Source of the DNA: an uncultured Rivularia sp.
GTDB lineage: Bacteria; Cyanobacteriota; Cyanobacteriia; Cyanobacteriales; Nostocaceae
Assembly (NCBI GenBank): GCA_963665115.1
Contig: OY762007.1
Location: 4,352,001-4,416,000, forward strand
Direction of reading: 5' to 3'
DNA: 64,000 nt
Under the pieces are notes generated by a model. That model was given only the letters and a program-made list of their open reading frames with translations. It was not told where the DNA came from and searched no databases. Made by a program: the position numbers and the translations under genes. Numbering within the stretch: the first letter of the stretch is position 1; the number at the start of each line of letters is the position of its first letter. Of this stretch, positions 1-30,243 are shown one piece after another.

Positions 1-190
1 TAATAAGGGTTATTTTCAACCCTCGTGTAATAGCGAACCGGAAGAATTAAAATAAATTATTCATATATCCACCAACATCAGAAATTTTAGAGCTATTCCC
101 AAGTCAATAATGTAGAACTACAAAATATTGTCAATGAGTGTTGGTGAATTACAACTTTGGAAATTGTACTAACAATCAGAATATTTACGC

Positions 191-999
191 TTATTCGATG
201 AGTGAGTAGAGGTAAAGTACTCGCTCCCAAACAATTTGAGCAAGCCGTACATCTAAACAATTTCCAAGGGCTGCTCGACGAGTGCGAGTAATTCCGTTGC
301 CGCTCGGTGTTCCTGTGGGGATGTCCATCTGATTGGCAGCCCGAACTGTAGTTCTAGCCATTCTGGATTGAACACTTGCTTCTTGCCAATTAACCCCAAT
401 TTCTTGGCTTTGGCTTCTGACGCGGGTATTTCCAGGAGGGTCGTCCTTTTCCACTCCAACTCAAAGCTCCTGGACGCGGCAACGAGCAAGAGCCTTTCTC
501 CCGACCATTTAGTTCCAAACCTCGATGTTCCGACAACAATCCATTCCGAATCATACCCACATTCATAAAGCTGCTGGAGCATCTGTTGAAAATATGATCC
601 GGGTTTGTCTCCTGGGTATTGGGGAGCCGACAATAATCCGGGTACATTTTCGAGACAGAAGAATTTGGGTTGGATTCTAGCAACAAGTCGCAAAACTGCG
701 GGAATACAGTCTCGTTCATCGGCTCCTCCCCTTCGATGCCCTTCAATGCTAAACGGTTGACATGGTGGTGATGCGGTAATCGTGTCGATTTCTCCCTTGT
801 GAATTCGGAGGTCGCGCACCGAGTTGTAGATTGGCACACCGGGGAATCGTTTTTGCAAGATTTCTTTACAAAACGAGTCGATTTCACAGAGTCCGCATAG
901 TTGGACTTTTCCTGTGATAATTCCCGAGAGGGGGAAACCGGCTCCAACTCCGCTGCACAAGTCAAGCACTCGGAGTTTTCTTGTTCCCATTTCTCCCAT
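191..999 (-). CDS. C5 DNA cytosine methyltransferase, catalytic (alpha-like) chain; apparent frameshift near 425-440
   Basis: Motifs DLCSGVG (I), CEID (II), ASPPCQPFS (IV) and ENVPG (VI) in ORF 253..999. A motif X-like RRAALGNC lies in ORF 191..454. Removing one base from each of two homopolymer triplets (minus-strand CCC, nt 438-440 and 424-426) joins them. Confidence 0.75.
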
Positions 1000-1157
1000 G
1001 CCTCCTCGTATTCAGCTAAGGTGTCATAATCATCCGGTTCTGGTGGTTCAATACTGTCATCCCAAAAAATCAAAGGATTTCCATCCGAGTCAAGTTTACG
1101 CGGCATTTCTCCAAAATGCGCCGGATTCCAACGGTCAGACTGAGAAATTTCTTTCAC
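253..1157 (-). CDS. Overprinted alternative-frame ORF, putative beta chain of the methyltransferase (motif IX-like tail)
   Basis: A 255-codon frame overlaps the MTase by ~600 nt. It has an acidic N-terminus (PPEPDDYDTLAEYEEAWEKWE) and SLPRPGA. The same two-base correction joins it to FNPEWLELQFGLPIRWT. Confidence 0.6.
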
Positions 1158-1211
1158 TCCTGTTCTCCCATCTGTATTTGTTATGAAACTTTTGCACCCA
1201 TTTAAACTTGT

Positions 1212-2849
1212 TTAGTTAGCCGAGCAAGATATATTTTCTCGCCATTTACGAAGCTGGTGATATATTTCAATCTCGTGGAAGGCTCGGTTTTCCCATATTA
1301 ACGTACCTGGAAGCTTGATCTTATATACCCCATTCGCTATCTCCTTATACTCCTCTATTACACCCTCTTTCTTAGCCTTATTTAATACCCTGATACTATC
1401 CGGAGTAATATCAATCACCCTCCGCTTTTGCTCCTTAGAAAGCGTATTCCAAGCTTGTTCCTTAATTTCTGGGTATTGGCTAAATATGTTTCTAATATCT
1501 TCCCAATCTCCGTGTATTAAAACATCGATTCCCTTGTCAAGTGGTGTCGGCTCCAACTCTGAATCCGATTCTTCTGGCTCCTCTAAATATTGTTCTTCTA
1601 CTTCTTCAGCACTTGTATAAAACCTAGACCTAGTTGTTTCTTTAACTACTTCCAACTCAGTCCAATGAAAATAATGATTGAATCCATCAATCTTGACCAA
1701 AATGGGATTAATATTCTCGCCATTTAATCCGATTACCTTACCTTGTTTATTTTGAAGATTCCCTGTCTTTATTTCTACCGTAGCGGGTATGTCGAAGCCC
1801 ATCGATACCAGAGCATCGTTACGAACATCGGTGTCTACCCATGCTAACTCTTGCTCAAAGTTGTGGTAATTTGCAAGAGTCGCACCCCAAGTTTCTCTCC
1901 ATTGTGGATTGTGGTTAAAAGCATAATTAGAAAGATGCTTGAGCGATGTTGTATCATGCCGAACTATATTCGATATGGCATCCCATCTTTTATCTTGAGG
2001 AACTGCTGCTTCCCAACGTTGGCAATTCTCTACTATCAATTGACCACAATTGGGACTGATTCTACCAATTTCAATGACCGAGGTGATTAGTTGCTCTGAT
2101 AATTCTTCCCATTTCTGCTCGACTGTTTGAGTTGTGCCGGTTGGTGGGGTTTGTTGATTATAACTGTCGTCCACTTCTTGAGTGCTATTTTCTTCTATAT
2201 CATCTACATTTTTGTCAGCACTGTCAACAACTTCATCAAGCTCTTCTGCTTCTGTGACTTTTCGATATAAATCAGCGATCGCACTTCTAATGATATCTTG
2301 AGGTATTAGCCCGAAATTATCCATCAATTTCTGAGTTAATAAGCCCGTTTGTTCGTCAAATTCATACATAGGTGGGAATTGTGCGTAGCGCTCCCCTCTA
2401 CAATTTCTGCGCCATATAGAAGGCTTACTTGGTAGTGCTGACTCTCTTTCCTTTTTAAGTTGTGCTTGCCTTTCCTTAATTAGTGAATCTACGTAAGCAC
2501 AAGTTAAATCCTCTTCGACTTCAGATAGCTGCTCAATTATTGGCTGATATTTTTCCGAACACAATCTTAGTAGCTTTGTCACGGGTAATTGAATTAGAGC
2601 ATTGGGACGATATGCGAAATCTTGAAAATTCTCTGCTAGTTTGAGCGCTCGTTTCTCTTCTGTGCTGCCTTTATCCCAGGCGTAATCATCGAGCAGTTCT
2701 CGATATTCCTTCTTACTGTAAGACCTCTTGTACTCCCACAACAAGAAACTAGCATGAAGGTATTCTACGGTGCTTGTTTCAAGATGCTTTACGGGTGAGG
2801 CATCTATGTTGTGAGTCTCTTGATACGTTGATTTTTCAACTAATTGCAT
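1212..2849 (-). CDS. Hypothetical element protein, 545 aa, acidic, possible KOW-like segment
   Basis: Long ORF with ATG start, co-oriented with the MTase. Segment TVEIKTGNLQNKQGKVIG resembles KOW. Confidence 0.7.
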   Translation of the reverse strand: MQLVEKSTYQETHNIDASPVKHLETSTVEYLHASFLLWEYKRSYSKKEYRELLDDYAWDKGSTEEKRALKLAENFQDFAYRPNALIQLPVTKLLRLCSEKYQPIIEQLSEVEEDLTCAYVDSLIKERQAQLKKERESALPSKPSIWRRNCRGERYAQFPPMYEFDEQTGLLTQKLMDNFGLIPQDIIRSAIADLYRKVTEAEELDEVVDSADKNVDDIEENSTQEVDDSYNQQTPPTGTTQTVEQKWEELSEQLITSVIEIGRISPNCGQLIVENCQRWEAAVPQDKRWDAISNIVRHDTTSLKHLSNYAFNHNPQWRETWGATLANYHNFEQELAWVDTDVRNDALVSMGFDIPATVEIKTGNLQNKQGKVIGLNGENINPILVKIDGFNHYFHWTELEVVKETTRSRFYTSAEEVEEQYLEEPEESDSELEPTPLDKGIDVLIHGDWEDIRNIFSQYPEIKEQAWNTLSKEQKRRVIDITPDSIRVLNKAKKEGVIEEYKEIANGVYKIKLPGTLIWENRAFHEIEIYHQLRKWRENISCSAN

Positions 2850-2926
2850 GATATTATGTCAGCTCGTTTTATTTGACTTTGGTCTTCTTTCAAGACCAAT
2901 TTTTATTTATTCGACTAAATAGAATA

Positions 2927-3553
2927 CTAAGCAGCACTTTGCTTTGTGATACTCTGCTGCTCCCTTTTGCGATGTGCTGCGAGTGCATATGCCAAAGTAT
3001 GTTGGTGATATAAAGGCATCTTCGGAAGTTCGATGTCTCTTCCCCATTCGTATATTGTGCGTTTGGATATTTTTAAGGTTTCAGATAGTAAGGTGAGGTA
3101 TTGTCCCCGAAATTTGGTAGAAGTTACTATTTTTAATTTTTCACTATGCGATAACCCCCTTAAAAGTGTCTCTTCGATGAACTGCATTGCGGCTATTCTT
3201 GGCGCTGTGTAATCACGGCAAGCGATTCTCCTCAATTCGTCTGGGGATAGAGCAATCTGTGCGTAACTACAAGTTTTTCTCGCGTGTTGTGGCATACCTT
3301 CAAAATTTGGATTATCACCCCACTCCCTCACTGTCTTTTTTTGCATCCCTAACAATTTGGAAATCAGGTTCATGCATCTTGTACTATATCCGAACCTAAT
3401 TTCCTCATCTATTATTGCTTCGGGCATTAATTTGTCTATGCCGAAGCAATAACGTAGAAATTCTCTAGGCTCTATGCTTTCGGTTGGTAGGTGTTGGAAA
3501 ATTTGGTAGTTTTGCATTTTTTTACTCATTACAGTTTTACGAATAATTTGCAA
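2927..3553 (-). CDS. Putative DNA-binding protein with two tandem HTH-like repeats, divergent from repressor
   Basis: Internal repeat ISKLLGMQKKTVREWG...MPQHARKTCSYA / LSETLKISKRTIYEWG...MPLYHQHTLAYA. Start codon uncertain. Confidence 0.65.
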   Translation of the reverse strand: MQIIRKTVMSKKMQNYQIFQHLPTESIEPREFLRYCFGIDKLMPEAIIDEEIRFGYSTRCMNLISKLLGMQKKTVREWGDNPNFEGMPQHARKTCSYAQIALSPDELRRIACRDYTAPRIAAMQFIEETLLRGLSHSEKLKIVTSTKFRGQYLTLLSETLKISKRTIYEWGRDIELPKMPLYHQHTLAYALAAHRKREQQSITKQSAA

Positions 3554-3677
3554 CTAATTAGATATTAATACTGTATTGCATAAAACACCATACAATTTTG
3601 TAAATATATGTTCCAGGCATTAGTTTGTAAACTCTTGAAATGCCTGTGGTATCTTTAAAGTAAACGTAGATTAATTT

Positions 3678-4338
3678 ATGTCAAGTGGTGATAACGAACG
3701 CAGACAACGGCTTTCCGTTTTATGTAAGCGACTTCGTGGTAATGAGTCGCTGCGTTCGTTTACCAAAAAGCGGAGTCATGAGCTTAAAGGTATTAGTCAT
3801 GCTTCTTGGAGTTCTTGGGAAAGCAAGAGAGCAGGACTTAGTACGGACTCTTTGGATCGGTTGGCAAGTTTTATTGGTTGTTCGCATCAATCTCTTTTCG
3901 CGTACTTAGACGGCTCCATAACTTTAAGAGAATTGCTTCAACCAACTTCAACGAGTGATATTAAGGTAAACAAGGACTCGCTTTCGGCTCTTTCTCCAGA
4001 TGCCGCTGCTGTATGGATGAAGTCGCTTTCCCTAAAAGACAAATTGCTTGTTGCTTCTCAAGGCTTTCAATTATTCCAAGATCAACTTGACGAGCTTGTT
4101 GAACAAAAAGCCAAAGAATTAGTTGAGCAAGAAGCTCAAGAAACTCATCACTAAAAGAGCTAAAGAGCTAGTTGAAAAAGAACGATTAGAACCAATTGAG
4201 CAAAAAGTCAAATTACTGATAAATTTACTATCTGCCGATGATTATCCCCCATTATCTGAGATTACAAGAGTAGCAGATAAATTAAATTTAAAAATTGAGG
4301 ACTTGATTGAATTATGCAATCGTATTTACGAGGGATAG
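3678..4338 (+). CDS. XRE-like HTH repressor, copy 1 (extra A at ~4141 splits it into ORFs 3678..4154 and 4123..4338)
   Basis: HTH-like SLRSFTKKR...ISHASWSSWE. Deleting one A in GAAACTC restores EAQELI and the C-terminus matching copy 2. Confidence 0.75.
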
Positions 4339-4674
4339 CAAGCAATTTGGGCATGGTAATTGATATTTCTCTACGGAGATTATATCCAGCAGGAAATCTC
4401 CGGGTGGAATACGGTTCCTCAGTTGTTAGAGTGCTAATTTCTAAGCAATAACCTAGAAATCACTGCATTTTCTAGCTTGATGCGATGGGTGACGTAAAAT
4501 TTCGTATTTTTGCATTTTTATCAAGAGTCGATTTTTACGGTTAATTTGCTATTGATTAGATATTAATACTTTTTGGTTTGAAAGGCAACACAAATAGTGA
4601 TGTCTTTTCACATATTTTTAGTTAGAAACTCTTGAAAGGCTTGTGGTATCTTGGAAAAAAAAGTAAATTCGTTT

Positions 4675-5280
4675 ATGCCAAGCGGTGATGATGAACGCAA
4701 GCTACGCCTCTCTATTTTGTGTAAGCGACTTCGTGGTGAAGAGTCGCTACGTGCGTTCACCAAAAAGCGAAGCCAAGAACTTGGAGGTATTAGCTACGCC
4801 GCTTGGGGCGTTTGGGAAAGGGCACAAGGAGATTTGAGTAGTGCTTCTTTAGCTAGGTTGGTAAATTTTCTTGGTTGTTCCTACCAATCTTTTTATGCAT
4901 ACTTAGATGGCTTCATCACTTTGGAGGAGTTAATTCAACCAACTTCAACTTCGGATGTTGAATCAAGCAAGCAATTAGATTTTTCTCCCGATGCAGCTAC
5001 TGTATGGATAAAGTCGCTAGCTCCCGAGGAGCAACTATTTATACTATCTCAAGGTTTTCAAGCGTTTCAGGAACAACTAAATAAGCTTGTTGAACAAAAA
5101 GCCAAGCAATTATTTGAGCAAGAAGCTCAAGAATTGATAAGTTTGCTATCTGGTGATGATTATCCTCGTTTTTCTGAGATTGCAAGAGTCGCAGATAAAT
5201 TCAATTTAAAAACTGAAGACTTAATGGAATTATGTAGTCGTATTTACTCAAGGAGCAAAGAATACGGACATGGTAATTAA
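4675..5280 (+). CDS. XRE-like HTH repressor, copy 2
   Basis: Colinear paralogue of 3678..4338 (LCKRLRG.ESLR.FTKKRS.EL.GIS). The ATG at 4675 aligns with the ATG of copy 1. Confidence 0.8.
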   Translation: MPSGDDERKLRLSILCKRLRGEESLRAFTKKRSQELGGISYAAWGVWERAQGDLSSASLARLVNFLGCSYQSFYAYLDGFITLEELIQPTSTSDVESSKQLDFSPDAATVWIKSLAPEEQLFILSQGFQAFQEQLNKLVEQKAKQLFEQEAQELISLLSGDDYPRFSEIARVADKFNLKTEDLMELCSRIYSRSKEYGHGN

Positions 5281-5603
5281 TATTCCTCTGCGGGGATTAT
5301 ATCCGGCACGAAATCTCCGTTTGAACACTATTACTTTAGGTACGAGCCTCTAAGCATACTAATAAGTTAAATGCTTTCATAGTGCTAATGACTATATTAA
5401 ACAAAATAATTGTGTAATTTAATCGGTAATATTCTTATTAACCAAAAACCATAAACTTTAAGTTTATTCACTATCTTACTTGTAACACTTTTAATTTTGT
5501 GTCTAAATTGATCATGTAAATTGAAGCGCAAGTGCAATTCAATTATATTTGAGTTTTAATTGCACCTCATTGATAGTTGAAAAGCAATCTAACTAAAGAA
5601 GGC

Positions 5604-5996
5604 ATGAAAAATATTCAGCTACTTTATACCCAAAGTACATTAGCTAAACGGTGTAAAGTTAGCCTTCAAACAATTAAAAACTGGTGTTTGTGGGCTGGAC
5701 TTACACCACCGAAAAAAGCAACCTATTTCAGTTGTGATGAATTAGAAGCCTTAGCTGACTTTTATATCGCCTACAAATTTCTGCGCGTACAGCAAGATGC
5801 TTACATAGATACTGTTTTAGGTATGGGTGGCTTAAAAAAGTATATTACCTCAGTACGCCGTATGAGCTTACATCAATTCGTTACGGAGTTTTTAACGATA
5901 GAAGAAAAAGCTAACTTTTTAGTGCAAATTTTAGTTGATAAATTAGAAGAGGAAATTGAAGATGATGAATTTAACTTTGGTGGCACAGCAGCTTGA
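5604..5996 (+). CDS. Small HTH protein (MerR/excisionase-like N-terminus), first gene of element operon
   Basis: YTQSTLAKRCKVSLQTIKNW pattern; ATG at 5604 preceded by GAAGG. Confidence 0.6.
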   Translation: MKNIQLLYTQSTLAKRCKVSLQTIKNWCLWAGLTPPKKATYFSCDELEALADFYIAYKFLRVQQDAYIDTVLGMGGLKKYITSVRRMSLHQFVTEFLTIEEKANFLVQILVDKLEEEIEDDEFNFGGTAA

Positions 5997-6591
5997 AATT
6001 CCCTTAGAGCAACTCAAATCAATTTGTCAGGTATTGAAAATTGAAATTGTTAAAAACGCAATTACGCCAAATGAGAAAGAAAAGATTCAAGAGTTTATCA
6101 GAGCGTGTAAAAACCAAGAAATAACCATAGAACAAGGACTATTAGAGCTACAAGAATTATCTCTTGAAGCCAAAACTCAACAAAAAGCTTTAGGCGAAAG
6201 ATTCAACTTAGGCGAATTTTTCAAGCAACGTATCGGCACCTCCCCAGAAGAATTAAATCCTGGCAGCTACCATTATGATTTATATCAATTACTGTTGAAA
6301 TCCCAATCAATATCTCAAGTTGGTTACGCATTATTTCGAGAAGCTTTTTTACGTCAAACACAGGATTTAATTATGAATGGCACCGAGGAATCATCTATCA
6401 ATCAAAATCAAACAGTTGCTGGTTTTGATAAAGCTTTTGTGAGTATTGAAAATCAATTTGAGCAAAATTTTTTAGGAAATTCAATCAACTGGGAGGAAAA
6501 GCAACATCCGATGTTGAAAGCATCTCAAAAAACAGCGCTACCTTCAACGCAGAAAATCAATACACTAACATCCCCGTCGTCGAAGAAGTAA
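5956..6591 (+). CDS. Hypothetical protein
   Basis: 211-aa ORF overlapping the previous gene, preceded by GAGGA. Confidence 0.65.
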   Translation: MKMMNLTLVAQQLEIPLEQLKSICQVLKIEIVKNAITPNEKEKIQEFIRACKNQEITIEQGLLELQELSLEAKTQQKALGERFNLGEFFKQRIGTSPEELNPGSYHYDLYQLLLKSQSISQVGYALFREAFLRQTQDLIMNGTEESSINQNQTVAGFDKAFVSIENQFEQNFLGNSINWEEKQHPMLKASQKTALPSTQKINTLTSPSSKK

Positions 6592-6608
6592 TTGAGGTAG
6601 TCCCAGAG

Positions 6609-6935
6609 TTGGCAACCGCAACTGTAAAAGCAATCGCACCAACAGTTAATAAAGCTGTAGCTACCGACCGTCGAACCATAGCTGATTTCATGAGGGAAGG
6701 GGGATTTGTTGCAACTACTGCCGCAATCACAACAACAACTACCGTTGCAACAATAGCTGTTTGTGTTACCTCTCCACCAAAACCAGTTTTCTTCAAAATT
6801 ATGCTTGGTGGGATTAGCGGGACTATTTTGGGAGGACTTATTGCAGCACTTATCTTAAGGCACTATAGAAAGGAGGTTTTAAGGAACGATGCTTTCTTCA
6901 CATCAACAGCAGAATCATCAAAACAATCAACTTAG
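6609..6935 (+). CDS. Small membrane protein (two hydrophobic segments); start uncertain
   Basis: Hydrophobic stretches VATIAVCV and IMLGGISGTILGGLIAALIL. The frame is open further upstream. Confidence 0.55.
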   Translation: MATATVKAIAPTVNKAVATDRRTIADFMREGGFVATTAAITTTTTVATIAVCVTSPPKPVFFKIMLGGISGTILGGLIAALILRHYRKEVLRNDAFFTSTAESSKQST

Positions 6936-7854
6936 TAAAGATAATTTTGATGAAGTATGGGTGCCAAATCCTCATGGACAATTACAAGATAGTGCTGCGA
7001 CGCATGGGTTAATCAATGGTATTAAATCCGGAAACTTAGATTCGTTGTTAACTAACCCTTGGCTAATGTCGATTTTCGTTGCAACAGTAATTTTGGTTGT
7101 GATTGCTGCAATTGCAACAATACTCTCCGGTCAACGTTCTACAGAAATTAACCCATCCCAAGAAGCATACTCCGAACTTTTGCAAAAATCCCAGAAACTG
7201 AATGCAACCGATAGCAACTTCCGAGAATATTTGACTCGTAATGATTACAGTTCTGGCTTAGTCAGTAACCCTGGTTTATTACAAGCAGTAGTTTTGGAAG
7301 CGAGTGCAAGATATAGCAACTCCGTTATTGCCAACCAAAACAATCCCCAAAATCCAGCTTATAACCAACACGAGGAAGTAATTAATCACGGTTCTGAAAT
7401 TGAAGCATTGAAACGCATCAATCTCGGAGCATCTGGGAAAAAAGCGGAACTTAGATATGTTGACCCTAGTACAGGCTCTTGGGTCACTATTCCAATAGAT
7501 TCTGCCGAGTTAGCTGCAAGTGGTTTGGTCAAATTAAATATTATCTCTAATAGCAGAAGGGAGACAACACAGCGATTTAATTTGGTGACAATTGCTCAAA
7601 ATACGCGACTTCGCTTATCAGAGGTAAAAGCCGCTATGTTGGAAGCCTTGCGTGTCAAAGGGTTAAGTCCGGTTGCATCGGAACTTGAGAAGACTGATTG
7701 GTTCGGGAATAAAGCCAGCCCATCCGATGCCCAGATATCTGATTATCAGCCCTACCAAGCAGAACCGACTCCCGCAACTCCATTAAATAAACAAGAATCA
7801 TCTGATGAAAATAAACCCTCACCAAAACCAATAGGGGGCAAAAATGCCCAGTAA
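6889..7854 (+). CDS. Single-pass membrane protein
   Basis: TM segment WLMSIFVATVILVVIAAIATIL; RBS AAGGAGG upstream. Confidence 0.7.
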   Translation: MLSSHQQQNHQNNQLSKDNFDEVWVPNPHGQLQDSAATHGLINGIKSGNLDSLLTNPWLMSIFVATVILVVIAAIATILSGQRSTEINPSQEAYSELLQKSQKLNATDSNFREYLTRNDYSSGLVSNPGLLQAVVLEASARYSNSVIANQNNPQNPAYNQHEEVINHGSEIEALKRINLGASGKKAELRYVDPSTGSWVTIPIDSAELAASGLVKLNIISNSRRETTQRFNLVTIAQNTRLRLSEVKAAMLEALRVKGLSPVASELEKTDWFGNKASPSDAQISDYQPYQAEPTPATPLNKQESSDENKPSPKPIGGKNAQ

Positions 7855-9229
7855 ACTAATATTCGCACCCATAACTCTGCTAATAGGAGGTTGGATGTTT
7901 ACCAGTAGTTTTGGCACTAACACAATTCAACAATCAGCAACACCATATTCCACCCAGCAGCAAGTTGTAGAAGTGGAAATGCCTGAACCAGCAAAATCTT
8001 TTCTTCGATTTGGTGGTAGTGCGATCGCAGTATTGGGGACATCAAGTTTAGTGTTTTGGGAATTAGCGAGTAAAAAACATCGCTCCTCAAAACCTCAACT
8101 TTTATTAGCTGCGGGTCAAAACTTTGTCCCAAACACAGTTCAATTGGTCAATCATCCTCAAGGAATTTCATCGGTGCAAAATCATCAAGAGCCACCAGCA
8201 AGTACTAAAATTCCTAAGCAGATTCAAAAACCAAGTGTCTCTCCTGAAGTTGAAGAGTTTCCACCACAAGAAGTTGCAAATTTCTACTTTCCAGGTGGAT
8301 TACCCGACTCGCTATCAAATGATTACGATACACTAAGCAACTTGAAACCACAAAGCAGTTCTGAGGATAAATATGCCGAAGTTAAATCATTAGTTTACGA
8401 AAACACGGTAGGTATCGTTGGCAAGGAAAAAGGCAGCGGTAAAACCTCAAAATTAGGTTATTTAATTGCCGAACATATTAAGCTTGGTCATTTGGTTTGG
8501 ATGATAAACCCCTTCGCCAAAGGTCAGCAGTGGAAAGGTATTAAGGTTTTTGGACGCGGTTATAAATTTGTTGAAGCAACTAATGCCATACGCGAATTTA
8601 CTCGTATTGCATTTTGGAGAATCGCAGAAGCTGGCGATGAAACCAAAGAGTACGAGCCATTTGAAGATTATCACCTGCATCTATCACTCGATGAAATGTC
8701 CAACTACTCCAGCGAAATCGATGCGATTGATTCTACTGTGATGCCTAAATTTTGGGAAGCGGTAGTGCAATTTTTACGACAAGCAAATATGTCTGTTTCT
8801 TTTGCAAGTCATGGTGATACTCAAGCTATGTTAGGTGGAGCTAAGGCTCTAACTGGTAAATCGCAAACTATCAAAGATGCCATAGTTTGGCTTTATGCTC
8901 AAGCTATTACCGATACTAACGTAGAAGGTAATAAACGTTGTGCGGGTTGGGCTTATTTAATTCGTCCAGATGGAGGTGAAAGAGAGAAGACGAGAATTGA
9001 AATTCCTTCTTGGATGCAAGGACCACCTGCAACTCGAATTGATGGAAAGGATAAGTATAACTACATTCAACTTGTTCAAAAATACTGCCCCCAGTATCTG
9101 TATCTTCCAGAGAAGGCCAAAAAACCACCACCAGAAGAAACTTCATCTATACCCATAGATACCGAACAGTTTCGTCAAAAACTAATGGAGCAAGAAGATA
9201 TATGGGGTTCCGATGGAGATAAAACATGA
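7844..9229 (+). CDS. Membrane-anchored P-loop ATPase (FtsK/HerA/coupling-protein-like)
   Basis: Two N-terminal hydrophobic segments, Pro/Gln-rich linker, Walker A-like GKEKGSGKTS, Walker B LHLSLDE, and RQANMSVSFASH. Confidence 0.7.
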   Translation: MPSKLIFAPITLLIGGWMFTSSFGTNTIQQSATPYSTQQQVVEVEMPEPAKSFLRFGGSAIAVLGTSSLVFWELASKKHRSSKPQLLLAAGQNFVPNTVQLVNHPQGISSVQNHQEPPASTKIPKQIQKPSVSPEVEEFPPQEVANFYFPGGLPDSLSNDYDTLSNLKPQSSSEDKYAEVKSLVYENTVGIVGKEKGSGKTSKLGYLIAEHIKLGHLVWMINPFAKGQQWKGIKVFGRGYKFVEATNAIREFTRIAFWRIAEAGDETKEYEPFEDYHLHLSLDEMSNYSSEIDAIDSTVMPKFWEAVVQFLRQANMSVSFASHGDTQAMLGGAKALTGKSQTIKDAIVWLYAQAITDTNVEGNKRCAGWAYLIRPDGGEREKTRIEIPSWMQGPPATRIDGKDKYNYIQLVQKYCPQYLYLPEKAKKPPPEETSSIPIDTEQFRQKLMEQEDIWGSDGDKT

Positions 9230-9291
9230 ACCGTTAACGAGAAAGAGAATAATACAATTCCAATACTTTAATTCATTAATTAGGAGTAACA

Positions 9292-9951
9292 ATGACTAGA
9301 AAACAAGTGTACCGAAGAGATTTACCACAATTGGCTTCAAGCCATCAATTAGATACCAACGTGGTAGATACACGTTATGAAGAATTTGATGACGACCAAT
9401 ATTCTCGTAACAATCAGTGGCATAATCGTGCCTATAATGCCGGACGCTACGCTAAGGGTGCTTACAATTGGGGTCAAAAATGCAGCCGTGGCGTAACCCC
9501 AGCAATGGAAAATGGAGCGGGCGCTGCGATTGGAACTCTAGGCACTGTTGCTAATCATACAAATCCTTTCAAACCCTGGCGTTCATTTGCCTTTTGGAGC
9601 ATGAGTATCGGTACTTTAGTTGTTGGCTCCTGGGTGGCACAATTCTTTTTAGGTGGACTAATTGCAACTCGCAATCCTCGCCAATTACCTCAGAATACTT
9701 CCACTCCAGTCCGTTTTGGTCACGGCGTTATTAATGCTGGTAAGCCTGTCGCTAACGGTGTTTGGAATGGATTTGGTCAAGTTGCAACGGGAGCAGGAGA
9801 TAGTTTGGATAGAGCTGTACGTTTCCAAACTGTTGAATCGAATAATTGGCAACAATCACCTGCCAGTGTGCAGCAGCCAAAACAGACAACTACCTTACCT
9901 TTGACTACTTGGACGGGTGATGGTCAATATCAACCTGTAAGGAGAAAGTAG
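9292..9951 (+). CDS. Membrane protein, Gly-rich
   Basis: RBS AGGAG; TM segment FAFWSMSIGTLVVGSWVAQFFLGGLIA. Confidence 0.7.
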   Translation: MTRKQVYRRDLPQLASSHQLDTNVVDTRYEEFDDDQYSRNNQWHNRAYNAGRYAKGAYNWGQKCSRGVTPAMENGAGAAIGTLGTVANHTNPFKPWRSFAFWSMSIGTLVVGSWVAQFFLGGLIATRNPRQLPQNTSTPVRFGHGVINAGKPVANGVWNGFGQVATGAGDSLDRAVRFQTVESNNWQQSPASVQQPKQTTTLPLTTWTGDGQYQPVRRK

Positions 9952-10001
9952 AAGGGAGTGAGAGAGGGAGAGAAAAATAAAGTACTAAAGGTAAATTAGA
10001 A

Positions 10002-10370
10002 ATGTTCAAAAAATCCGATAAATTCCCTCACTCCCTCCCTCCTTCGCTCCCTCACTCCTGCTGGGTGAGGATTCCTACGTCGAGTTTTTTAATTACAAGT
10101 TCCGTGTTTATTGTATTAATTCTGGATATGGCAAGTCCTGGCTATGCTTCGTTTGCTTTAATCCCAAATATGCAACCATTAATTGCAACGCTGACTAACA
10201 ATATTCGTTCGGCAAATGAAAAGTTGACGCATTCACAATCCTTACCCAGTTCTACTCAAGAAATTCAACAACCTTTAGGACATGAAAATTGTCGAACATT
10301 ATTAGATGCTTACAACAAGAATGCTAAATGTCATTTCAACCTGAAGAATTACTCAAACATCTCCCAATAG
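10002..10370 (+). CDS. Hypothetical exported/membrane protein
   Basis: Hydrophobic segment FLITSSVFIVLILDMA; overlaps the next gene. Confidence 0.5.
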   Translation: MFKKSDKFPHSLPPSLPHSCWVRIPTSSFLITSSVFIVLILDMASPGYASFALIPNMQPLIATLTNNIRSANEKLTHSQSLPSSTQEIQQPLGHENCRTLLDAYNKNAKCHFNLKNYSNISQ

Positions 10371-11192
10371 AAATTCAGTATCAAGAAATAAAGGCATCTG
10401 AGGAAGCATATCGTAAATTTAGATTATCTCAAGCAAGAGGCCGTATTTGTTGTTTTGGATTATCTTTGGTTATGGCGATCGCCATTCTACATCCTTCAAT
10501 AAATCAATGGTTTGAGACTAAACTTCAATTAAACCGTATTGCTGTAATTAGTTTTTCAAAAAGCCTCAATAAACCAAAACAAGCTGATAAAATTGCTGTT
10601 GCACTTGTAAACTACGCACGCAGACAAAAGTGGGAAGTACGAACAGGGGAGCGTCATTACAACATTTTTTATGTTCAAGGTATGTTTCCATCAGGCATCA
10701 AAAATGATAACAAACCGAACCAGTTCAATGATTCCCGGTTTTTAGTAGAAGTAAATCCCACTCCCAGACTGATTAGTGCTTGGGAAGCGTCTATTGAACC
10801 GGGTAATTATTATACTAAGCAGCCTATGAATGCTTTGGGCGCTGCACAGATAAAAGTTCCCGGACAGTATAAAGCTTGGCGGATTGGAAAACACAAAGGG
10901 TCGTGAGATTGCATTAGTTCAAGTTGCACCAGTAAACATAATCCGGGACTTCAACCGTAATAGCAAAATTGATAAATATGATAAGAAGGAATATTCAATA
11001 ATTGGAGCGAATCAACATAGTGGAAACGACCAAAAGTTTGTTGATAATGCAAGCGCTGGATGTCCGGTAGGACGAACATCTAAAGGACATCAAGAATTTA
11101 TGAGTTATTTATACAAAGACGTGGGTTATCAAGCAAATAATAATTTCATATTTTCAACTACATTTATTTCAGCAAAAGAATTGAAATTTTAA
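10328..11192 (+). CDS. Membrane-anchored putative cell-wall enzyme with L,D-transpeptidase-like H...SAGC motif (extra G at ~10899 splits it)
   Basis: Removing one G from AAAGGGTCGTGAG gives HKGREIALVQ and joins ORFs 10328..10906 and 10884..11192. Motif NQHSGNDQKFVDNASAGCPVG; N-terminal TM segment. Confidence 0.6.
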
Positions 11193-11197
11193 CTTTT

Positions 11198-11626
11198 ATG
11201 CCCAGCAGGAAATTGAGAATGAAAACAAAAAAATATCTGTCTCCAAGCGATTATTATTCGTACATTAAATCTGATGCTTGGAGAAGTAAGCACTATCACT
11301 GGCTAAAACAATCTAGCAATAGATGTTCGATGTTTCCTTGGATAAGAATAGGCAAATATGCTACTAGAAAATATGGTAAATACAACATACATCATACAGG
11401 GGTTGGCTATCGACATTTGGGACATGAGGAATTAGGTAAAGATGTACTTCCGCTTTGCCCGTTTGCTCATTGGTTAATTCATGGTGGACATATGAAAGCT
11501 AAAGCTCCTTGGCAACCTAATGCTATTCAAAAAACTTTGCATTTATGGTGCAGTTTACCACTAATTATGAAACAACTATTTTTGTTGTTTAGTGGTTTAT
11601 TAATAATATTTTATTTAAGAGCATGA
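11198..11626 (+). CDS. HNH-endonuclease-like protein with hydrophobic C-terminus
   Basis: YIKSDAW, RCSM, IHH...YRHLGHE...DVLPLCPFAHWLIH pattern. Confidence 0.55.
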   Translation: MPSRKLRMKTKKYLSPSDYYSYIKSDAWRSKHYHWLKQSSNRCSMFPWIRIGKYATRKYGKYNIHHTGVGYRHLGHEELGKDVLPLCPFAHWLIHGGHMKAKAPWQPNAIQKTLHLWCSLPLIMKQLFLLFSGLLIIFYLRA

Positions 11627-11664
11627 ATAGAATTATTTAGTGGTGTTTTATTTCTATGTAGATA

Positions 11665-12462
11665 ATGAGAGATTCAATAAAGTTAGGATACAAATGGGAT
11701 TTACTCAATATACTATTACTATTTTTGATTACAAGTTTTGCATTAAGTAAACCCGCAATTAAATTTATTTCAAATGGGGTAAAAAGTATCTCTCCAACTC
11801 CTACTTCATATTCTGGAAGGTTAAACGATTTATTTGCTAACAACTCTTCTATAGGTGTATTAGCAATCTGTGCATCTGAAGGAAATTGTCAGCTTGATGG
11901 TAGCAGAACAAAGCTTTATTCAGGTCATGTTGACCCTGGTAATGGGGTTCTAAATAGAGGCTGGTGTAGCGACCAAGGTAGGGGAGGTAATAATTTAGAT
12001 AATGCTGATGCAGTATGTTTAAAGAGAACTATAAGCCGTATTCCTAGATTAGCTAACAAACTCAAAAATGTTGGCATAAATCCCGAAAAAAATATTGAAG
12101 CATTTATTAATAATTTAGACCAATGGAATCAAGCATCTCCTCGTGTCTCAGATGCTTTTGCAAAAAAATATGCTGATGCTTTGAAGAAAGGATTAACGGG
12201 TAAAGAAGCTATTTTATGGGCGAGGGTTGAGGCTTTTCGTAAAAGTAATGGAGAACTTGAAGCAGGTAATTCACGAGTAGGTCTATTTTCAATTTGTGCT
12301 AATCCTCAAAATACTTACTACATTACAAGGTTACGACAATATTCAATGTGGTCGGAACGATGGAGATGGAATTGTATTGCTTTAGATCAACAGCGAAGAC
12401 AAGAAGCTATTAATCAAGTTTTAATGAGAAACGAGAATAATTTCAACAATCAAAATAACTAA
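11665..12462 (+). CDS. Membrane-anchored putative lysozyme-like/cell-wall hydrolase
   Basis: N-terminal TM segment; ICASEGN...LYSGHVDPGNG..NRGWCSDQ resembles lysozyme-fold catalytic regions (inference). Confidence 0.55.
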   Translation: MRDSIKLGYKWDLLNILLLFLITSFALSKPAIKFISNGVKSISPTPTSYSGRLNDLFANNSSIGVLAICASEGNCQLDGSRTKLYSGHVDPGNGVLNRGWCSDQGRGGNNLDNADAVCLKRTISRIPRLANKLKNVGINPEKNIEAFINNLDQWNQASPRVSDAFAKKYADALKKGLTGKEAILWARVEAFRKSNGELEAGNSRVGLFSICANPQNTYYITRLRQYSMWSERWRWNCIALDQQRRQEAINQVLMRNENNFNNQNN

Positions 12463-12700
12463 TAATATTAATATAATTATGAAGCAATTATATTCCTGCT
12501 ATCAAGTCGAAGAAGTTTGAAAACATCACTGGTAATGCGTTAGCGAAGCTCACGCCCCGGCATCGCCCTCATTGAAGAACACTACATTCTATCGAAATGG
12601 TTACTCATAGCATCGGATTACGGTGTACCTCAAAAACGCTAAAGGGCGATTTGGTTTGGTTCTAAATTGGCTCCAGTTAATGCACTATCTCCAAGCGATA

Positions 12701-13832
12701 AGTGCCTAAGCAAAATTAATTGTATATTCTGAACCAAAATTTATAAGAATATTTTCGACAGCTTCAACTAAAGTAGAATAACTATCATAGGCATTCACTT
12801 CCAGCCATTTGTATTTAATAAATCGCCATAATATTTCTATAATATTCAAATGAGGGGAATAAGTAGGTAAAAAGAAAATATACAACCCTTTTTTTGACCA
12901 TTCTTCTTCTTTATCCCACAAAAAATTGTTTTGATGTATCGATGAATTATCCATGACTAAAACTGTTTTTTTTGTAATCTTTTTACAAAAATCATCGATA
13001 CAAGCTATAACAACATCACTATTGATACTACAATCAAAAGCATATGCTTCTAATTCGTTATTTCTAGTTAAAAATCCTAAAACGTTTAATCTTTTACTTT
13101 GTTGACTTTTTTCTGTTGTTTTTTGTTTACTTTCTTGCCAAGCATAAGGGATGTATGGAATTAAACAAAAGCCACTTTCATCTACATATCTAATTTCTAT
13201 TTCTCCAATAGATTCTTGTTCTTTTAATTTTTGTAATTCCTGGTATTTTTTATCGTAAAATGCAGGAATGGGAACACCTCCAACTATTCTCTTAATTCTA
13301 TACCAACCCATAGAGGCGATTTTTAACACTCTCTTAATTGTATCTTTGCTTGCTAAAATCCCCCATTCTTTTTCTATTCTATCTTGAACCTTTTCTAAAT
13401 TTTTTGGCGTTTCTTTTACCCATTCTTTAATCACTTTTTGTTGATTAATATTAAAGATTGTTTTACGACCACGACCTGGATTATTATATAATCCTGCCAA
13501 ACTCTCCAAATCCCAATTATTAAACCAGTTATAAATTGTGTTACGACTAACTTTAAATAATTTCATTAATTCTGATATTTTATATCCTTGAAAACTTAAT
13601 TTTATACAATGCGCCCTTTGTCTTACTTGGTAATATTTACTTTGATGATAGATTCTATCTAAAATTTTTAATGTTTCCTTACTTAATCCTTTTATATATC
13701 TCATCTGTTAAAAAATCTATATTACTCTCTCATACTATTTTTTCACAAAGTAGGAGATAACAAGATTTTTTATACCTCGAAGTAATAATTTTAATATTTT
13801 TTTAAATATACAATTAATTTTGCACTAGTACT
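12701..13832 (-). mobile_element. Complete IS630-family insertion sequence with TA target duplication
   Basis: TIRs AGTGCCTAAGCAAAATTAATTGTATATT and AGTACTAGTGCAAAATTAATTGTATATT (reverse complement of the right end), flanked by TA at 12699-12700 and 13833-13834. Confidence 0.92.
12706..13704 (-). CDS. IS630-family transposase
   Basis: N-terminal HTH; DDE motifs YVDESGF, VMDN and PTYSPHLNIIE; uninterrupted single ORF. Confidence 0.95.
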   Translation of the reverse strand: MRYIKGLSKETLKILDRIYHQSKYYQVRQRAHCIKLSFQGYKISELMKLFKVSRNTIYNWFNNWDLESLAGLYNNPGRGRKTIFNINQQKVIKEWVKETPKNLEKVQDRIEKEWGILASKDTIKRVLKIASMGWYRIKRIVGGVPIPAFYDKKYQELQKLKEQESIGEIEIRYVDESGFCLIPYIPYAWQESKQKTTEKSQQSKRLNVLGFLTRNNELEAYAFDCSINSDVVIACIDDFCKKITKKTVLVMDNSSIHQNNFLWDKEEEWSKKGLYIFFLPTYSPHLNIIEILWRFIKYKWLEVNAYDSYSTLVEAVENILINFGSEYTINFA

Positions 13833-14043
13833 TAGAAGGTCCAGTGTGGGAGATGCAATTTCTGACCTTAAAGATATCCCTATTAATTTTTACATTGAAT
13901 ACTTGGGAATGCAGTGAAAAAGGAAAATATGCTTGCTATCTAGAGAATATATTTGCTTTGAAATCAAGAATAAGAACAAACGTTTGTAGTGATTGTAGGG
14001 CAGCCATCAGTCCCGTTCCTAAAATCAAATCAATCCCCGCTTT

Positions 14044-14400
14044 TTGGCAGATGATTCAAATACCAAAGTAAGTAATCAGAACCAGGTGCTAGGGGAAAAT
14101 ATATCACTGCCGATTTCCCTTAGCACCCAATTAGAAGGTGAGAGCCAAAACCATGAAGACACTTCATTATTATCAACTGATTCAAATACCCAAGTAAGTA
14201 ATGACGATCAAGTGCTAGGGGAAAACATATTACATTTAAATTCCCCGCTTCTCCCATCGTAAACGTGGTGAGGGCAGTGGTAATATTTTCTTGAGTTACG
14301 CCCATGCTAATAGCAATAACAAGAAACCAGTCAAACAGCTTTACTTCGAGTGGGAATATGGGGGTAAAAGAGGAAAGACTTATGTGCGTTTAGCTGAGTC
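14044..14400 (+). pseudogene. Fragmented element gene with ~50-bp internal direct repeat and basic C-terminal domain
   Basis: gattcaaatacc.aagtaagtaat...gtgctaggggaaaa at ~14053 and ~14179. A shifted frame reads HRKRGEGSGNIF...QLYFEWEYGGKRGKTYVR. Confidence 0.45.
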
Positions 14401-14628
14401 CCAAGGGGACACGCTGCGCGAACGCTAATTGCCTGCATGTCTAACGCACTTAACCTAGTATTTTCGAGACACCAAAGTTATCTGTATTAGACATCTCCGA
14501 AAACAGCCAAAGTCTTACTATAACTACTTTTTAAATTACGATTACCTATATGTTGCATCTTGTATTAGATAAGTTTGAAAGTTGTTAGTATTTGCAATTT
14601 CCTTAAAATACCACATCGTACATAAAAC

Positions 14629-15468
14629 TTGAGTCTTAAACACGGTTCCTGGTTTGAGGTCGTAAAAAGGAAATTCTGGTTCGGTGCATCCCAAACAAGG
14701 TACTCCGGCGCGTGTTTTTGATGAGACGCGATTCCATAAGATGCGATTGCAGGAAGAATGAGTCATTGGCCCGCGACATCCGATGTCGTAAAATAAGCAT
14801 CCTTTACGTTGAGCAAATTCTGTGGTGGATGCTTTATAAGCAAAGTGGATATTGCGAGTACAACCAGTTTGCGTAAACGTGTTGAAGAAAGTTTGGGGAC
14901 GATGCAAGTCATCGAGGACAATATCGCCGATTCTGCCAGTTGCGATCGCCACCAATATTTGAGTTATCCAGTCCGGGTGGGCTGGGCAGCCGGGAATATT
15001 AATTACGGGTAAACCAGATTTCGACCGAAAGTCTTTACCTAAAAATCCGCCTTCTTCTCGCTTGAGATATTGCAATCCGGTTGAATCGGTGGGGTTTGGT
15101 GCCATCGCGGGAATTCCTCCCCAGCAAGCACAGTCTCCCACCGCTACGACAAAATTGGCAACGTGAGCCAAATCGCTTAACCAATCTTTCATCGGGCGAT
15201 CGGCAAATCTATTCCATTCGCCGGTACCGTTGGGAGCATTAATTACAGAGCCTTCAAATACGAGAATATCGAGGGGCTTTTTACCCAAAAGACATTCCCA
15301 TAGCATCGTCTGTAAATCAATACCCAACTCCATTCCTAGAGATGGATGCCATAGGACGTTAACGCCAAAGTCAGTTACTAAATCAACTGCTGTGGGTTCT
15401 TCGGCGTTTAGGAATGACATGGTGTTGCCACTACAGGCACCACCTTGTAACCATAGTAAATTAGCCAT
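14629..15468 (-). CDS. hupS: Uptake [NiFe]-hydrogenase small subunit, 5' portion (280 codons), interrupted; frame runs on to a stop at 14542
   Basis: MANLLWLQGGACSGNTMSFLNAEEP, GDCA, PGCPAHPDW, FTQTGCTRN, CLFYDIGCRGP, CLGCTEPEFP; no Tat leader, as in cyanobacterial HupS. Confidence 0.95.
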
Positions 15469-15763: not shown

Positions 15764-15777
15764 GTACAAGTTATTAC
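15764..15777. promoter_or_regulatory. Candidate NtcA-binding site in the hupS / hyp-upstream divergent region
   Basis: GTAcaagttatTAC = GTA-N8-TAC. A weaker TGT-N10-ACA lies at 15590-15605. The AT-rich background allows chance matches. Confidence 0.45.
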
Positions 15778-25679: not shown

Positions 25680-26021
25680 ATGCACGAACTTGGAGTTACT
25701 CAAAATATAGTATCAATTGTTGTCGAACACGCTGAAGGTAAAAAAGTCCAGCGAGTTTTGTTAGAAATTGGCAAATTATCGGCAATTATGCCGGATGCCG
25801 TAGAATTTTGTTTTGATATTTGTTCTCAAGGAACGGTTTTAGAAAAGGCAAAGTTAGAAATTATTGAAATTCCCGGTTTGGCTGTTTGTCGTCAATGCGG
25901 TACGAAAATTCCTTTGGAAAAACCTTTTGGAAAATGTAATTGTGGCAGTCAGCAGTTAGATTTAATCGCTGGGGAAGAATTGAAAATCAAGGAAATAGAA
26001 GTAGAAGAATTATGTGTGTAA
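25680..26021 (+). CDS. hypA: Nickel metallochaperone HypA
   Basis: MHE start; CRQC and CNCG. Confidence 0.96.
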   Translation: MHELGVTQNIVSIVVEHAEGKKVQRVLLEIGKLSAIMPDAVEFCFDICSQGTVLEKAKLEIIEIPGLAVCRQCGTKIPLEKPFGKCNCGSQQLDLIAGEELKIKEIEVEELCV

Positions 26022-26849
26022 CCTGCGGTTGTTCGGATGATAGCGCTAAAATTACTCATCCTCAAACGGGTGAAGTTGTAGCCGTTAATTCTCATAATGA
26101 TGGACATCATACTCATACCTTACCCGATGGTACGATAATCAATCATTCTCATAGCCACGAGAAGTTTAACGATGCATCAATTCACGCCAAAATACATAAT
26201 ACAACGATATCTTTAGAACAAAATATTTTAGCTAAAAATGATTTGATAGCAGCCCAAAATCGCGGATGGTTTAAGGGTAGAAATATTTTAGCTTTAAATT
26301 TGATGAGTTCTCCCGGCTCTGGAAAAACAACTTTATTAACTCGCACTATTAACGATTTAAAAAGTAAACTAACTATTAGTGTAATTGAAGGCGATCAAGA
26401 AACAATCAACGATGCCAAAAAAATAGAAGCAACTGGCTGTAAAGTTGTACAAATAAATACCGGAAACTGGCTGTCATCTCGATGCATTGATGGTAGAAAA
26501 AGGTTTACAACAGCTTAATCCCAGCATTGATTCGGTAGTAGCGATCGAAAATGTCGGAAATTTAGTTTGTCCGGCTTTATTTGATTTAGGAGAACAAGCA
26601 AAAGTGGTCATTCTTTCCGTTACCGAAGGAGAAGATAAACCAATCAAATATCCTCATATTTTCCGCGCTAGTAATGTAATGATAATTACGAAAATAGATT
26701 TATTACCTTACGTACAATTTGATGTAGAAAAATGTATCGAATATGCACGACAAGTTAATCCTGATATGCGGATTTTTCAAGTTTCCGCAGTCACGGAAGA
26801 TGGGTTAAAAGATTGGTATGAATGGTTAGAAATGCAAGTTAGAAGTTAA
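26012..26849 (+). CDS. hypB: Nickel GTPase HypB (extra A at ~26465)
   Basis: MCVTCGC, His-rich tract, SSPGSGKTT, ENVGNLVCP. Deleting one A in GGAAACTGGC restores NTGTGCHLDA. Confidence 0.93.
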
Positions 26850-28933: not shown

Positions 28934-30194
28934 CTAAGCAACTTGCTTGAAGCTTCCGCACCAAGTAGAGGTTGACCCATCATCGTCTGTAGAGGCACGT
29001 TCCATACCCCTTGCGTAAGACAGCATTACCATTGCTGCGGCTACATCTCTACCACATCGATAGCTGCACTTCTCACAATGGTGTTCCCTTTGTGCTAACG
29101 TTTTCTTTTTCTGATGACCACAGTTAGGGCAAGTTTGGGAAGGTTTTACTTTCTTGGTTGGAACCTCAATATAAAATCCTCCGGCTTCGGTAACTTTATA
29201 TTTGATTAAATCCTTTAAGTTACCAATCCCAACGTCAAGAAGTGACCGATTTAAACCGGACTTTTGACGTTTATTTTTACCTTTTGACTTGCGAGTCATT
29301 CCTTTTAGGTTTAACTTTTCAGTCGCTACCAAGCTATTACAGCTAACTATTTGTGTAGAGACTTTGTGTTGCCAATCTTGTCTTTGACGAGCAACTTTTG
29401 AATGAATTTTGGCTATTGCTTTATTGACTTTCTTCCAACGTCGTGAAGCGCGGAATGCGCCCCGCTTTCCACTCTGAATGCATTCAGAGTGGGTCGGGGC
29501 TTTAACTTTTTTTCTAAAGTTAGGTGGACGTTTGCGGCGACTAGTTTTAGCAATTTTATTGAGTTTGGATTGAGCAGTCCTAACAAATCTAGGATTGTCT
29601 ACCACATCACCGCTAGAATCAGCGATTGCATGGTGAATACCAAAATCCAGTCCAATAGCGCCAGTATTGGTAGTTGGTCTAGTTGGAGCGCAATCAACGG
29701 TAATCGAGGCATACCATTTACCTTGTTTGAAAATAATTGTACAAGTTTTAGGTGTACCCCAATCACGCGCCTGACCGCGCATTTTAATATTACCTAAATT
29801 GCTAATTTTCAGATAACCATTTTTACCTTCAGTGCAAGCTTTCCAACCAGATTTACAAGGATAAGTCCACCCTTTATATCTGCGACTAGCTTTAAATTTT
29901 GGGTATCCAGATTTTAGTTTGAAAAACCGCTTAAAAGCAAAATAAACACGTTTTATTGTGTCTTGCAATGCATGGCTACCAAGTTCTTTATATTCTTCCC
30001 ATTCTTCTTTAAAGTCAGGTAAACAATTTTGTTGGTCATAATAACTAATTGATTTGCCAAACTTTTTATATGAAGTTTTGCGATGTTCTACGCAAGCGTT
30101 ATACAAATCTTTGTGTAATCTACGCTCTTTTGTGCATCTTATCGTTTTGAATTTTTGACGGGTAAAGTCTAAAAGTAATTCTTTTGGTAGCCAT
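28934..30194 (-). CDS. tnpB: RNA-guided endonuclease TnpB (extra A near 30128; 51-bp in-frame insertion)
   Basis: MATKRITFRLYP start at 30194; RuvC residues IGLDFG, VATEKL, RDVAAA; Zn finger CPNC...CEKC. Confidence 0.9.
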
Positions 30195-30243
30195 AACAAT
30201 CGACCTGTATGTTACTTTAATATAGTAGCATATTGGTAGCATT

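Follow-up and report, generated by a model that had tools for sequence, protein, structure and literature searches.

Introduction

Among the interruption elements of heterocyst-forming cyanobacteria described by Hilton et al. in 2016 (PMC4874684), those in hupS, the gene for the small subunit of the uptake hydrogenase, are placed only at nucleotides (nt) 49–51 (serine recombinase) and 610 (tyrosine recombinase, 1.8 kb), and interruption elements of nearly 1 Mb are reported; this and all that follows on cited papers refers to the parts of them accessible to us. An origin from viruses or phage remnants is cited there as a hypothesis, the origin of the elements being hard to trace, and in PMC8987985 such elements are regarded as immobilised. 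Here, we describe an element of 139,430 bp (genome C1:4227200–4366629) that interrupts hupS within codon 280 in an uncultured Rivularia sp. and of which one end lies in the window, i.e., the whole stretch of 64,000 nucleotides analysed (C1:4352001–4416000). The genome, G000, is a single contig of 8.69 Mb, and window positions equal C1 positions minus 4,352,000. Judged from its genes and junctions, the element is an apparently complete integrative and conjugative element (ICE) of class MPF_C and likely a functional heterocyst excision element, and we consider it likely that a single XisF-family recombinase excises it in heterocysts, which would restore hupSL, and also moves it as an ICE.

The hupS elements of Hilton et al. 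(PMC4874684) share the target gene, and three of their four have a serine recombinase located at one end and opposite to hupS, in elements of 30, 91 and 258 kb; the position differs, i.e., nt 838–839 here compared with nt 49–51 or 610. With the fdxN element of Nostoc PCC 7120 (XisF, XisH, XisI) the locus has in common a recombinase that passes the NCBIfam XisF model and whose end position and orientation are as in Table B of PMC4874684; the target is, however, hupS rather than fdxN, and the element has no xisH. Among recombinases whose excision is supported by reads, CnXisD2 of Calothrix sp. NIES-4101 is the nearest (67% identical, sister clade); 7 heterocyst-type and 134 vegetative-type reads are given for its nifD junction (PMC11249958). 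CnXisD2 acts on nifD, not on hupS, and in NIES-4101 xisH–xisI likewise lie off the elements (PMC11249958). The same paper describes a three-part hupS (hupS-I/II/III) in this strain, with an unresolved hupS-II/III junction; identity of that junction with the present site was ruled out, since both NIES-4101 hupS copies are continuous across codon 280.

On the conjugative side, plasmid pCC7120alpha is the model of class MPF_C (PMC4027160), and its MPF_C/MOBV locus has ten transfer genes in order, a MobV relaxase and an AAA ATPase in common with the element, which differs in being chromosomal and bounded by att sites within a heterocyst gene. In Bacillus, SPbeta (spsM) and skin (sigK) are likewise mobile elements with a serine recombinase that makes a gene whole again in a terminally differentiated cell, and recombination units are exchanged between elements (PMC6957869). 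The natural cases described there are prophages, the ICE chimera being a laboratory construct, whereas the ICE backbone described here is found in nature with several units. The string "conjug" is absent from the main texts of PMC4874684 and PMC11249958, and among the matches listed in the literature searched, which covered few subscription journals, there was no paper on the codon-280 site or on ICEs inside heterocyst elements, although strain genome papers may mention the site. Already known are hupS as a target and large element size; apparently new, as far as this literature goes, are the codon-280 site and the ICE link. An earlier reading of the DNA without database searches (the sequence-only reading) had supposed that the class of element was not new and that its cargo might be; the former stands, given the hupS elements at other positions (PMC4874684), and as to the latter, the cargo is an ICE of a family common in these genomes.

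Results

hupS is interrupted within codon 280

Both Pfam small-subunit domains, Oxidored_q6 and NiFe_hyd_SSU_C, are matched by the HupS of the window, which parallels intact homologues as far as ...PGTVFKTQ (codon 280, 14631–14629) and thereafter continues as the unrelated VLCTMWYFKE. The break falls at nt 838–839 of the gene (window 14631–14630), and hupL is absent among the 18 open reading frames (ORFs) scanned in window 253–13704. A six-frame search of the genome recovered the missing HupS end, TVLGVPKDLP...EEDFFTV, at a distance of about 124.8 kb from the left edge of the window, with hupL downstream of it (Table 1). The two hupS halves have the same orientation and, when joined at their common CA, give an in-frame HupS of 320 amino acids (aa), which at its C-terminal end does not differ from the unsplit relative G007. 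The 5′ part differs from that of G007 by 21 synonymous and 1 non-synonymous change over codons 16–279. In these respects the locus is as the sequence-only reading had it: a hupS canonical to codon 280 and then unrelated, no hupL in the adjoining 14.6 kb, a cargo-rich element of more than 14.6 kb with its crossover at about 14620–14635, the hupS 3′ end and hupL to the left of the window in the same orientation, and a protein of about 320 aa.

The orphan 3′ half, which is start-less, is free of stop codons in all 14 copies, with pN/pS values (ratios of non-synonymous to synonymous change) of 0–0.40; in a comparison with the copy at L056, 16 synonymous changes stand against 1 non-synonymous. On these comparisons the orphan half is under purifying selection. 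Rejoining of the halves predicts that both the 3′ half and the recombinase are conserved, and the latter has pN/pS values of 0.13–0.19 versus 11 orthologues.

The junctions and their recombinase

The two sides of the element have just the 2-bp core CA in common, which rules out a long direct repeat at the junctions. About this core the element ends form an imperfect inverted repeat (18 of 25 positions, 16 of the 21 inner ones), and a symmetric GGAAC/GTTCC is common to both host arms. We take a 2-bp core with inverted-repeat arms to be the att anatomy of large serine recombinases, and by this comparison the junctions are an att pair of that type. The core is CA in 15 of 15 attR junctions (14 hupS loci and L055, with L057 and the nifD group excluded) and in 12 of 12 attL junctions of relatives; an arm match of 16 in 21 occurs at 46 places in the genome, both strands and the arms themselves counted. 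The short direct repeat that the sequence-only reading had predicted to match 14615–14645 was not found beyond CA, the inverted-repeat arms taking its place; the shortest flanking repeat listed by Hilton et al. is 3 bp (PMC4874684).

At the far junction, where a serine or tyrosine recombinase had been expected, the start codon of an XisF-family serine recombinase lies 60 bp inside attR from the core, on the strand opposite to hupS. In G000 its frame stops at 378 aa owing to one extra base. This base is missing from the contigs of all four runs compared, so that the recombinase is intact and the frameshift an assembly error, and a truncated or insertion-sequence-disrupted enzyme is ruled out. 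The intact protein scores 468.9 bits against the NCBIfam XisF cut-off of 375, and its 8 closest relatives (85–99% identical) encode 438 aa. A search for a second integrase inside the element found none, the 8 resolvase and 12 phage-integrase matches of the genome otherwise lying outside it, and the sole other recombination enzyme found inside is the IS630 transposase. Recombinase and att pair together are a new large-serine-recombinase candidate. The recombinases next to an ICE group as a single nested clade (support 98/96) in a tree of 21 sequences, and because of this nesting the partnership of recombinase and ICE at the codon-280 site is, on this tree, derived.

The pattern GTA-N8-TAC, which we take to be the NtcA-type consensus, is present in exact form in the P arm of G000, in 5 of 15 P arms and in 4 of 12 P′ arms, compared with 59 of 20,000 random 25-mers. 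The NtcA-like box of the element arms (14605–14629; C1:4227202–4227226) is possibly a coincidence and is treated as a lead only, because related arms are being compared and the motif shares positions with the conserved recombinase arm.

Table 1 Features of the element and its surroundings. Positions are those of the window unless preceded by C1 (genome).
Feature	Position	Strand	Basis or remark
hupS 5′ part, codons 1–279 + CA of codon 280	14630..15468	-	Pfam Oxidored_q6, NiFe_hyd_SSU_C
attL: host arm 14656–14632, core CA 14631–14630, element arm P′ 14629–14605	14605..14656	-	junction comparison
attR, core CA	C1:4227201–4227200		junction comparison
XisF-family serine recombinase	C1:4227262–4228579	+	resolvase, recombinase and zinc-ribbon domains; NCBIfam XisF
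hupS 3′ part (last 40 codons)	C1:4227076–4227199	-	six-frame genome search
hupL, split by ~8.7-kb element	C1:4216675–4226947	-	downstream of hupS 3′ part
Tyrosine recombinase of ~8.7-kb hupL element	C1:4218031–4219347	+	
Maturation protease (presumably hupW, downstream of hupL)	C1:4212886–4213395	-	same strand as hupS 3′ part and hupL
Antirepressor + primase-like gene	C1:4230281–4234197	+	primase weak, E 9e-4
MPF_C transfer operon with VirB4, VirB10, coupling protein	C1:4235286–4248138	+	homology to pCC7120alpha
MobV relaxase	C1:4254144–4255749	-	
Metal-resistance cargo	C1:4270691–4342093		domain matches
Restriction-modification pair	C1:4345491–4351485	-	
In-window end of 139,430-bp element	1..14629		element boundary at attL
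C5 DNA methyltransferase, overlapping ORF 390–1157	253–999		Pfam DNA_methylase
545-aa protein of unknown function + three probable helix-turn-helix (HTH) regulators	within 253..5280		HTH matches below cut-off
Conserved ICE-family operon, eleven ORFs (probably ten genes), mostly of unassigned function	5577..12462	+	ORF list
461-aa FtsK/coupling-protein-like ATPase	7844–9229	+	ESM Atlas, lead only
Candidate cell-wall hydrolase, two frames here	10328–11192	+	PHROGs endolysin
IS630-family transposase inside element	12706..13704	-	NCBIfam above cut-off
GTA-N8-TAC (NtcA-type) candidate site, 309 bp upstream of hupS	15764..15777	-	pattern match only

Conjugation genes and cargo

Ten consecutive transfer genes of pCC7120alpha are matched in order (30–56% identical) in a complete transfer locus, and the MPF_C assignment is by homology to this model plasmid; an AAA ATPase gene follows the transfer operon, and then the MobV relaxase. 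The cargo of about 70 kb consists mostly of metal-resistance and regulatory genes, i.e., four P-type ATPases, two RND systems, two multicopper oxidases, CopB, MntP and ars-type genes (a label that is our reading of LMWPc, FMN_red, SBF and ArsR matches), together with MerR/ArsR regulators, three two-component pairs and two sigma-70 factors. The GC content of the element is host-like (37.7% versus 37.9% for the genome).

The same site in other genomes

A recombinase scan of the species genomes gave 22 loci, two weak non-cyanobacterial matches having been dropped; these overlap the 8 closest relatives above, and the counts are not additive. At 80% identity or more there are 16 loci, 14 of them beside a hupS 3′ fragment, one beside an oxidoreductase gene and one unresolved, and four loci at 56–67% identity adjoin a fragment read as nifD, a reading confirmed for L068 by a table in PMC11249958. 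The HupS C-terminus is matched in 195 of 201 family genomes, at least 10 of which have best scores typical of a break. At least nine of the break-type genomes, G000 included, are split at codon 280 among the matches listed, and G115 apparently ends there.

The split site is shared across several genera of heterocyst formers, with inserts of 1.7–110 kb. In G023 the recombinase alone makes an element of 1,673 bp; the inserts are about 4 and 5 kb in G108 and G171, about 55 kb in G213, with a glycosyltransferase-rich cluster and remnants of VirB4 and VirB10 (L095–L097), and 109,938 bp in G026, of which 81 kb are common with G000. At L047 and L048 (G008), an element at the codon-280 site was read from its ORFs as having NRPS/PKS-like (non-ribosomal peptide synthetase/polyketide synthase-like) genes at both ends and no ICE. 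The hupS halves are opposed at this site in G004 (C3:6870 and 139589–140017) and G235 (C1:3285321–3344374), where restoration would need an inversion; the stretches read between the opposed halves of G235 are ordinary chromosomal genes.

Integration at a second target and exchange of modules

A copy of the element in G005 is 98% identical over 15.5 kb, and each of its two ends adjoins, at a CA, one half of an oxidoreductase gene, presumably of Gfo/Idh/MocA type, that is whole in G000. The recombinases of L053 and L055, which share a sample code, are identical and stand at the hupS and the oxidoreductase target, respectively. nif and hup were not found in the G005 assembly, in which three contigs begin in ICE-like sequence; we do not accept that G005 is devoid of them as shown.

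The ICE backbone also occurs with other recombination units, and begins at the same place after different integrases. G000 itself has a backbone of 80–89% identity behind tRNA-Phe and a tyrosine integrase, with a repeat of the tRNA end 131 kb on, and a more distant backbone adjoins tRNA-Cys. In G003 the backbone fills an insert of 108.9 kb within nifE and is preceded by an XisF-family enzyme of 36% identity, and in G106 a related transfer operon follows an XisF-family gene within an insert of about 189 kb in nifH. A second MPF_C subtype lies behind the recombinase of the known hupS codon-16 site in G003 and G013, at the recombinase end only. VirB4 is matched in 101 of 121 family genomes, many of the matches being a copy of about 60% identity; compared with that of G026, the VirB4 of the element has about 218 synonymous and 54 non-synonymous changes, and the transfer genes are intact in G018.

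The sister ICE at tRNA-Phe occupies C1:5882103–6013058 (about 131 kb) and is followed by a second integrase, with a further copy of the tRNA end at 6144457. An array of 11 tRNA genes is present at C1:2710034–2711354, and a tRNA with a CTA anticodon at 203200–203273. The VirB4 copy of about 60% identity at C1:7648457–7651183 recurs in most family genomes and is perhaps a domesticated locus.

Other features of the window and its surroundings

The part of the element inside the window represents the second conserved end of the ICE. Its operon stretch 5577..12462 is matched in 18 of 26 genus relatives, and its ESM Atlas features agree at 0.97 with clusters of which one is named as a type IV secretion system (T4SS) DNA-transfer family, a lead only. 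The PHROGs endolysin match of the candidate cell-wall hydrolase has E 4e-10 for the unsplit G026 orthologue, and the 265-aa ORF at 11665–12462 has Atlas matches to hypothetical clusters and a weak VgrG3-like match (0.87). The gene set at 253..5280 (methyltransferase, 545-aa protein and regulators) recurs in the G026 and G003 elements. The IS630 transposase is a single genome copy that is also present in the element of G018 and is unmatched in the element ends of G026 and G005. A 126-bp tandem repeat lies in a Dam-type methyltransferase gene inside the element (C1:4265127–4266061), with similar sequence near window 14180–14390.

Of the hyp cluster, taken to be intact in the sequence-only reading, hypF, hypD and hypE are above their NCBIfam cut-offs and hypA barely so (93.1 versus 88.1), while hypB is in two frames (25940–26849), probably through a single-base assembly error. 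A sigma-70 promoter scan around hupS was uninformative (10 sites versus 9.9 expected). The host genome has a hetR family match and split nif genes, the nif cluster to the left of the window (C1:4129759–4205351) being repeatedly split by tyrosine- and serine-recombinase elements. An ORF at 28934–30199 was judged by eye to be transposase-like or TnpB-like.

Discussion

What the sequences show directly is the anatomy of the element, its two att sites, an intact recombinase, a rejoining in frame and one integration at another site. In the mechanism we propose, the recombinase would bind the inverted-repeat arms, cut at CA and release a circle, the rejoined gene would encode the 320-aa HupS, and the hupS promoter would again stand upstream of hupL, which would additionally require its own tyrosine-type excision. 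The element carries no xisH, and the timing would therefore depend on a directionality factor that either acts in trans or has yet to be recognised. In vegetative cells the same recombinase would excise and re-insert the element as an ICE. The tRNA-targeting tyrosine integrase that this backbone usually has was likely replaced when it took up the present recombination module. Heterocyst excision that restores hupSL has a high probability in our judgement, and transfer as an ICE is favoured on balance.

That the split is a misassembly is largely refuted. The assembly contains many single-base errors and the read check is of the attR side only, but attR is spanned by single contigs in three runs (X1–X3, possibly the source of this very DNA), G018 is 99.5% identical to the attL region over 2,457 bp, and many independent genomes are split at the same site. 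It is also very improbable that an ICE merely inactivated hupS, with the uptake hydrogenase lost, or using a truncated small subunit, and no programmed excision. Under that explanation one would note that an excised form, i.e., a joint or loose end with the hupS 5′ part, was not seen in contigs on the attR side, in a data type that drops rare forms, and that the truncated HupS might not be useless, because all 11 cysteines of the rejoined protein precede the break. These points face a 3′ half conserved across split genomes of several genera, the intact hupL, maturation protease and hypF, hypD and hypE, and a hupL that lies 139 kb away from the hupS promoter. A more substantial, albeit unlikely, alternative is an old domesticated cassette in which the ICE is a passenger without an integrase of its own, excised in heterocysts and no longer transferring. 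The stand-alone recombinase of G023, the inserts of 4–55 kb with unrelated cargo and the single nested clade of ICE-adjacent recombinases suit such a cassette, and MPF_C loci are so common, as the VirB4 counts indicate, that an ICE could plausibly have inserted by chance into a tolerant site. In G005, however, the backbone arrived at a new site along with this recombinase and the two element ends, and neither the intact transfer genes of G018 and the excess of synonymous change in VirB4 nor the common starting point of the backbone after different integrases is in line with a passenger that has ceased to transfer.

Excision and transfer by a single recombinase nevertheless have further points to contend with. 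xisH has four matches in the genome and none inside the element (xisI being outside the search), and no directionality factor was identified for the element. Compared with G018, one extra base is present in G000 in each of four genes, those of the primase, VirB4, AAA ATPase and relaxase, all of which are single ORFs in the near-identical stretches of G018, and the read test covered the recombinase error alone. The majority of codon-280 elements are without the ICE backbone, the middle of the G005 copy is not assembled, and the G005 insertion could be a re-integration within the genome rather than a transfer. An XisF-family gene stands beside 4 of the 21 VirB4 loci of the subfamily in 10 near-complete genomes, which were partly chosen for known cases and from which one further partial VirB4 match was excluded, and this count cautions against over-reading.

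The origin of heterocyst interruption elements is an open question, for which conjugation operons beside Xis recombinases in hupS (two sites), nifE and nifH offer a concrete alternative source of size and spread. No experimental study of MPF_C conjugation had been found by 2014 (PMC4027160). Defined att sites, the unsplit close relative G007 as a recipient and the metal-resistance markers would make both element origin and MPF_C conjugation testable. As a tentative generalisation, many large heterocyst elements might be live ICEs, with one MPF_C backbone family swapping modules (tRNA tyrosine integrases, and XisF-type enzymes for hupS, nifE and nifH), so that one and the same recombinase would carry the element from filament to filament and, in heterocysts, turn on nitrogen-fixation genes, the small elements being bare modules that ICEs pick up or leave. 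If our reading is true, the heterocyst chromosome would lose about 70 kb of genes, most of them for metal resistance, and developmental gene switches would be tied to conjugative elements.

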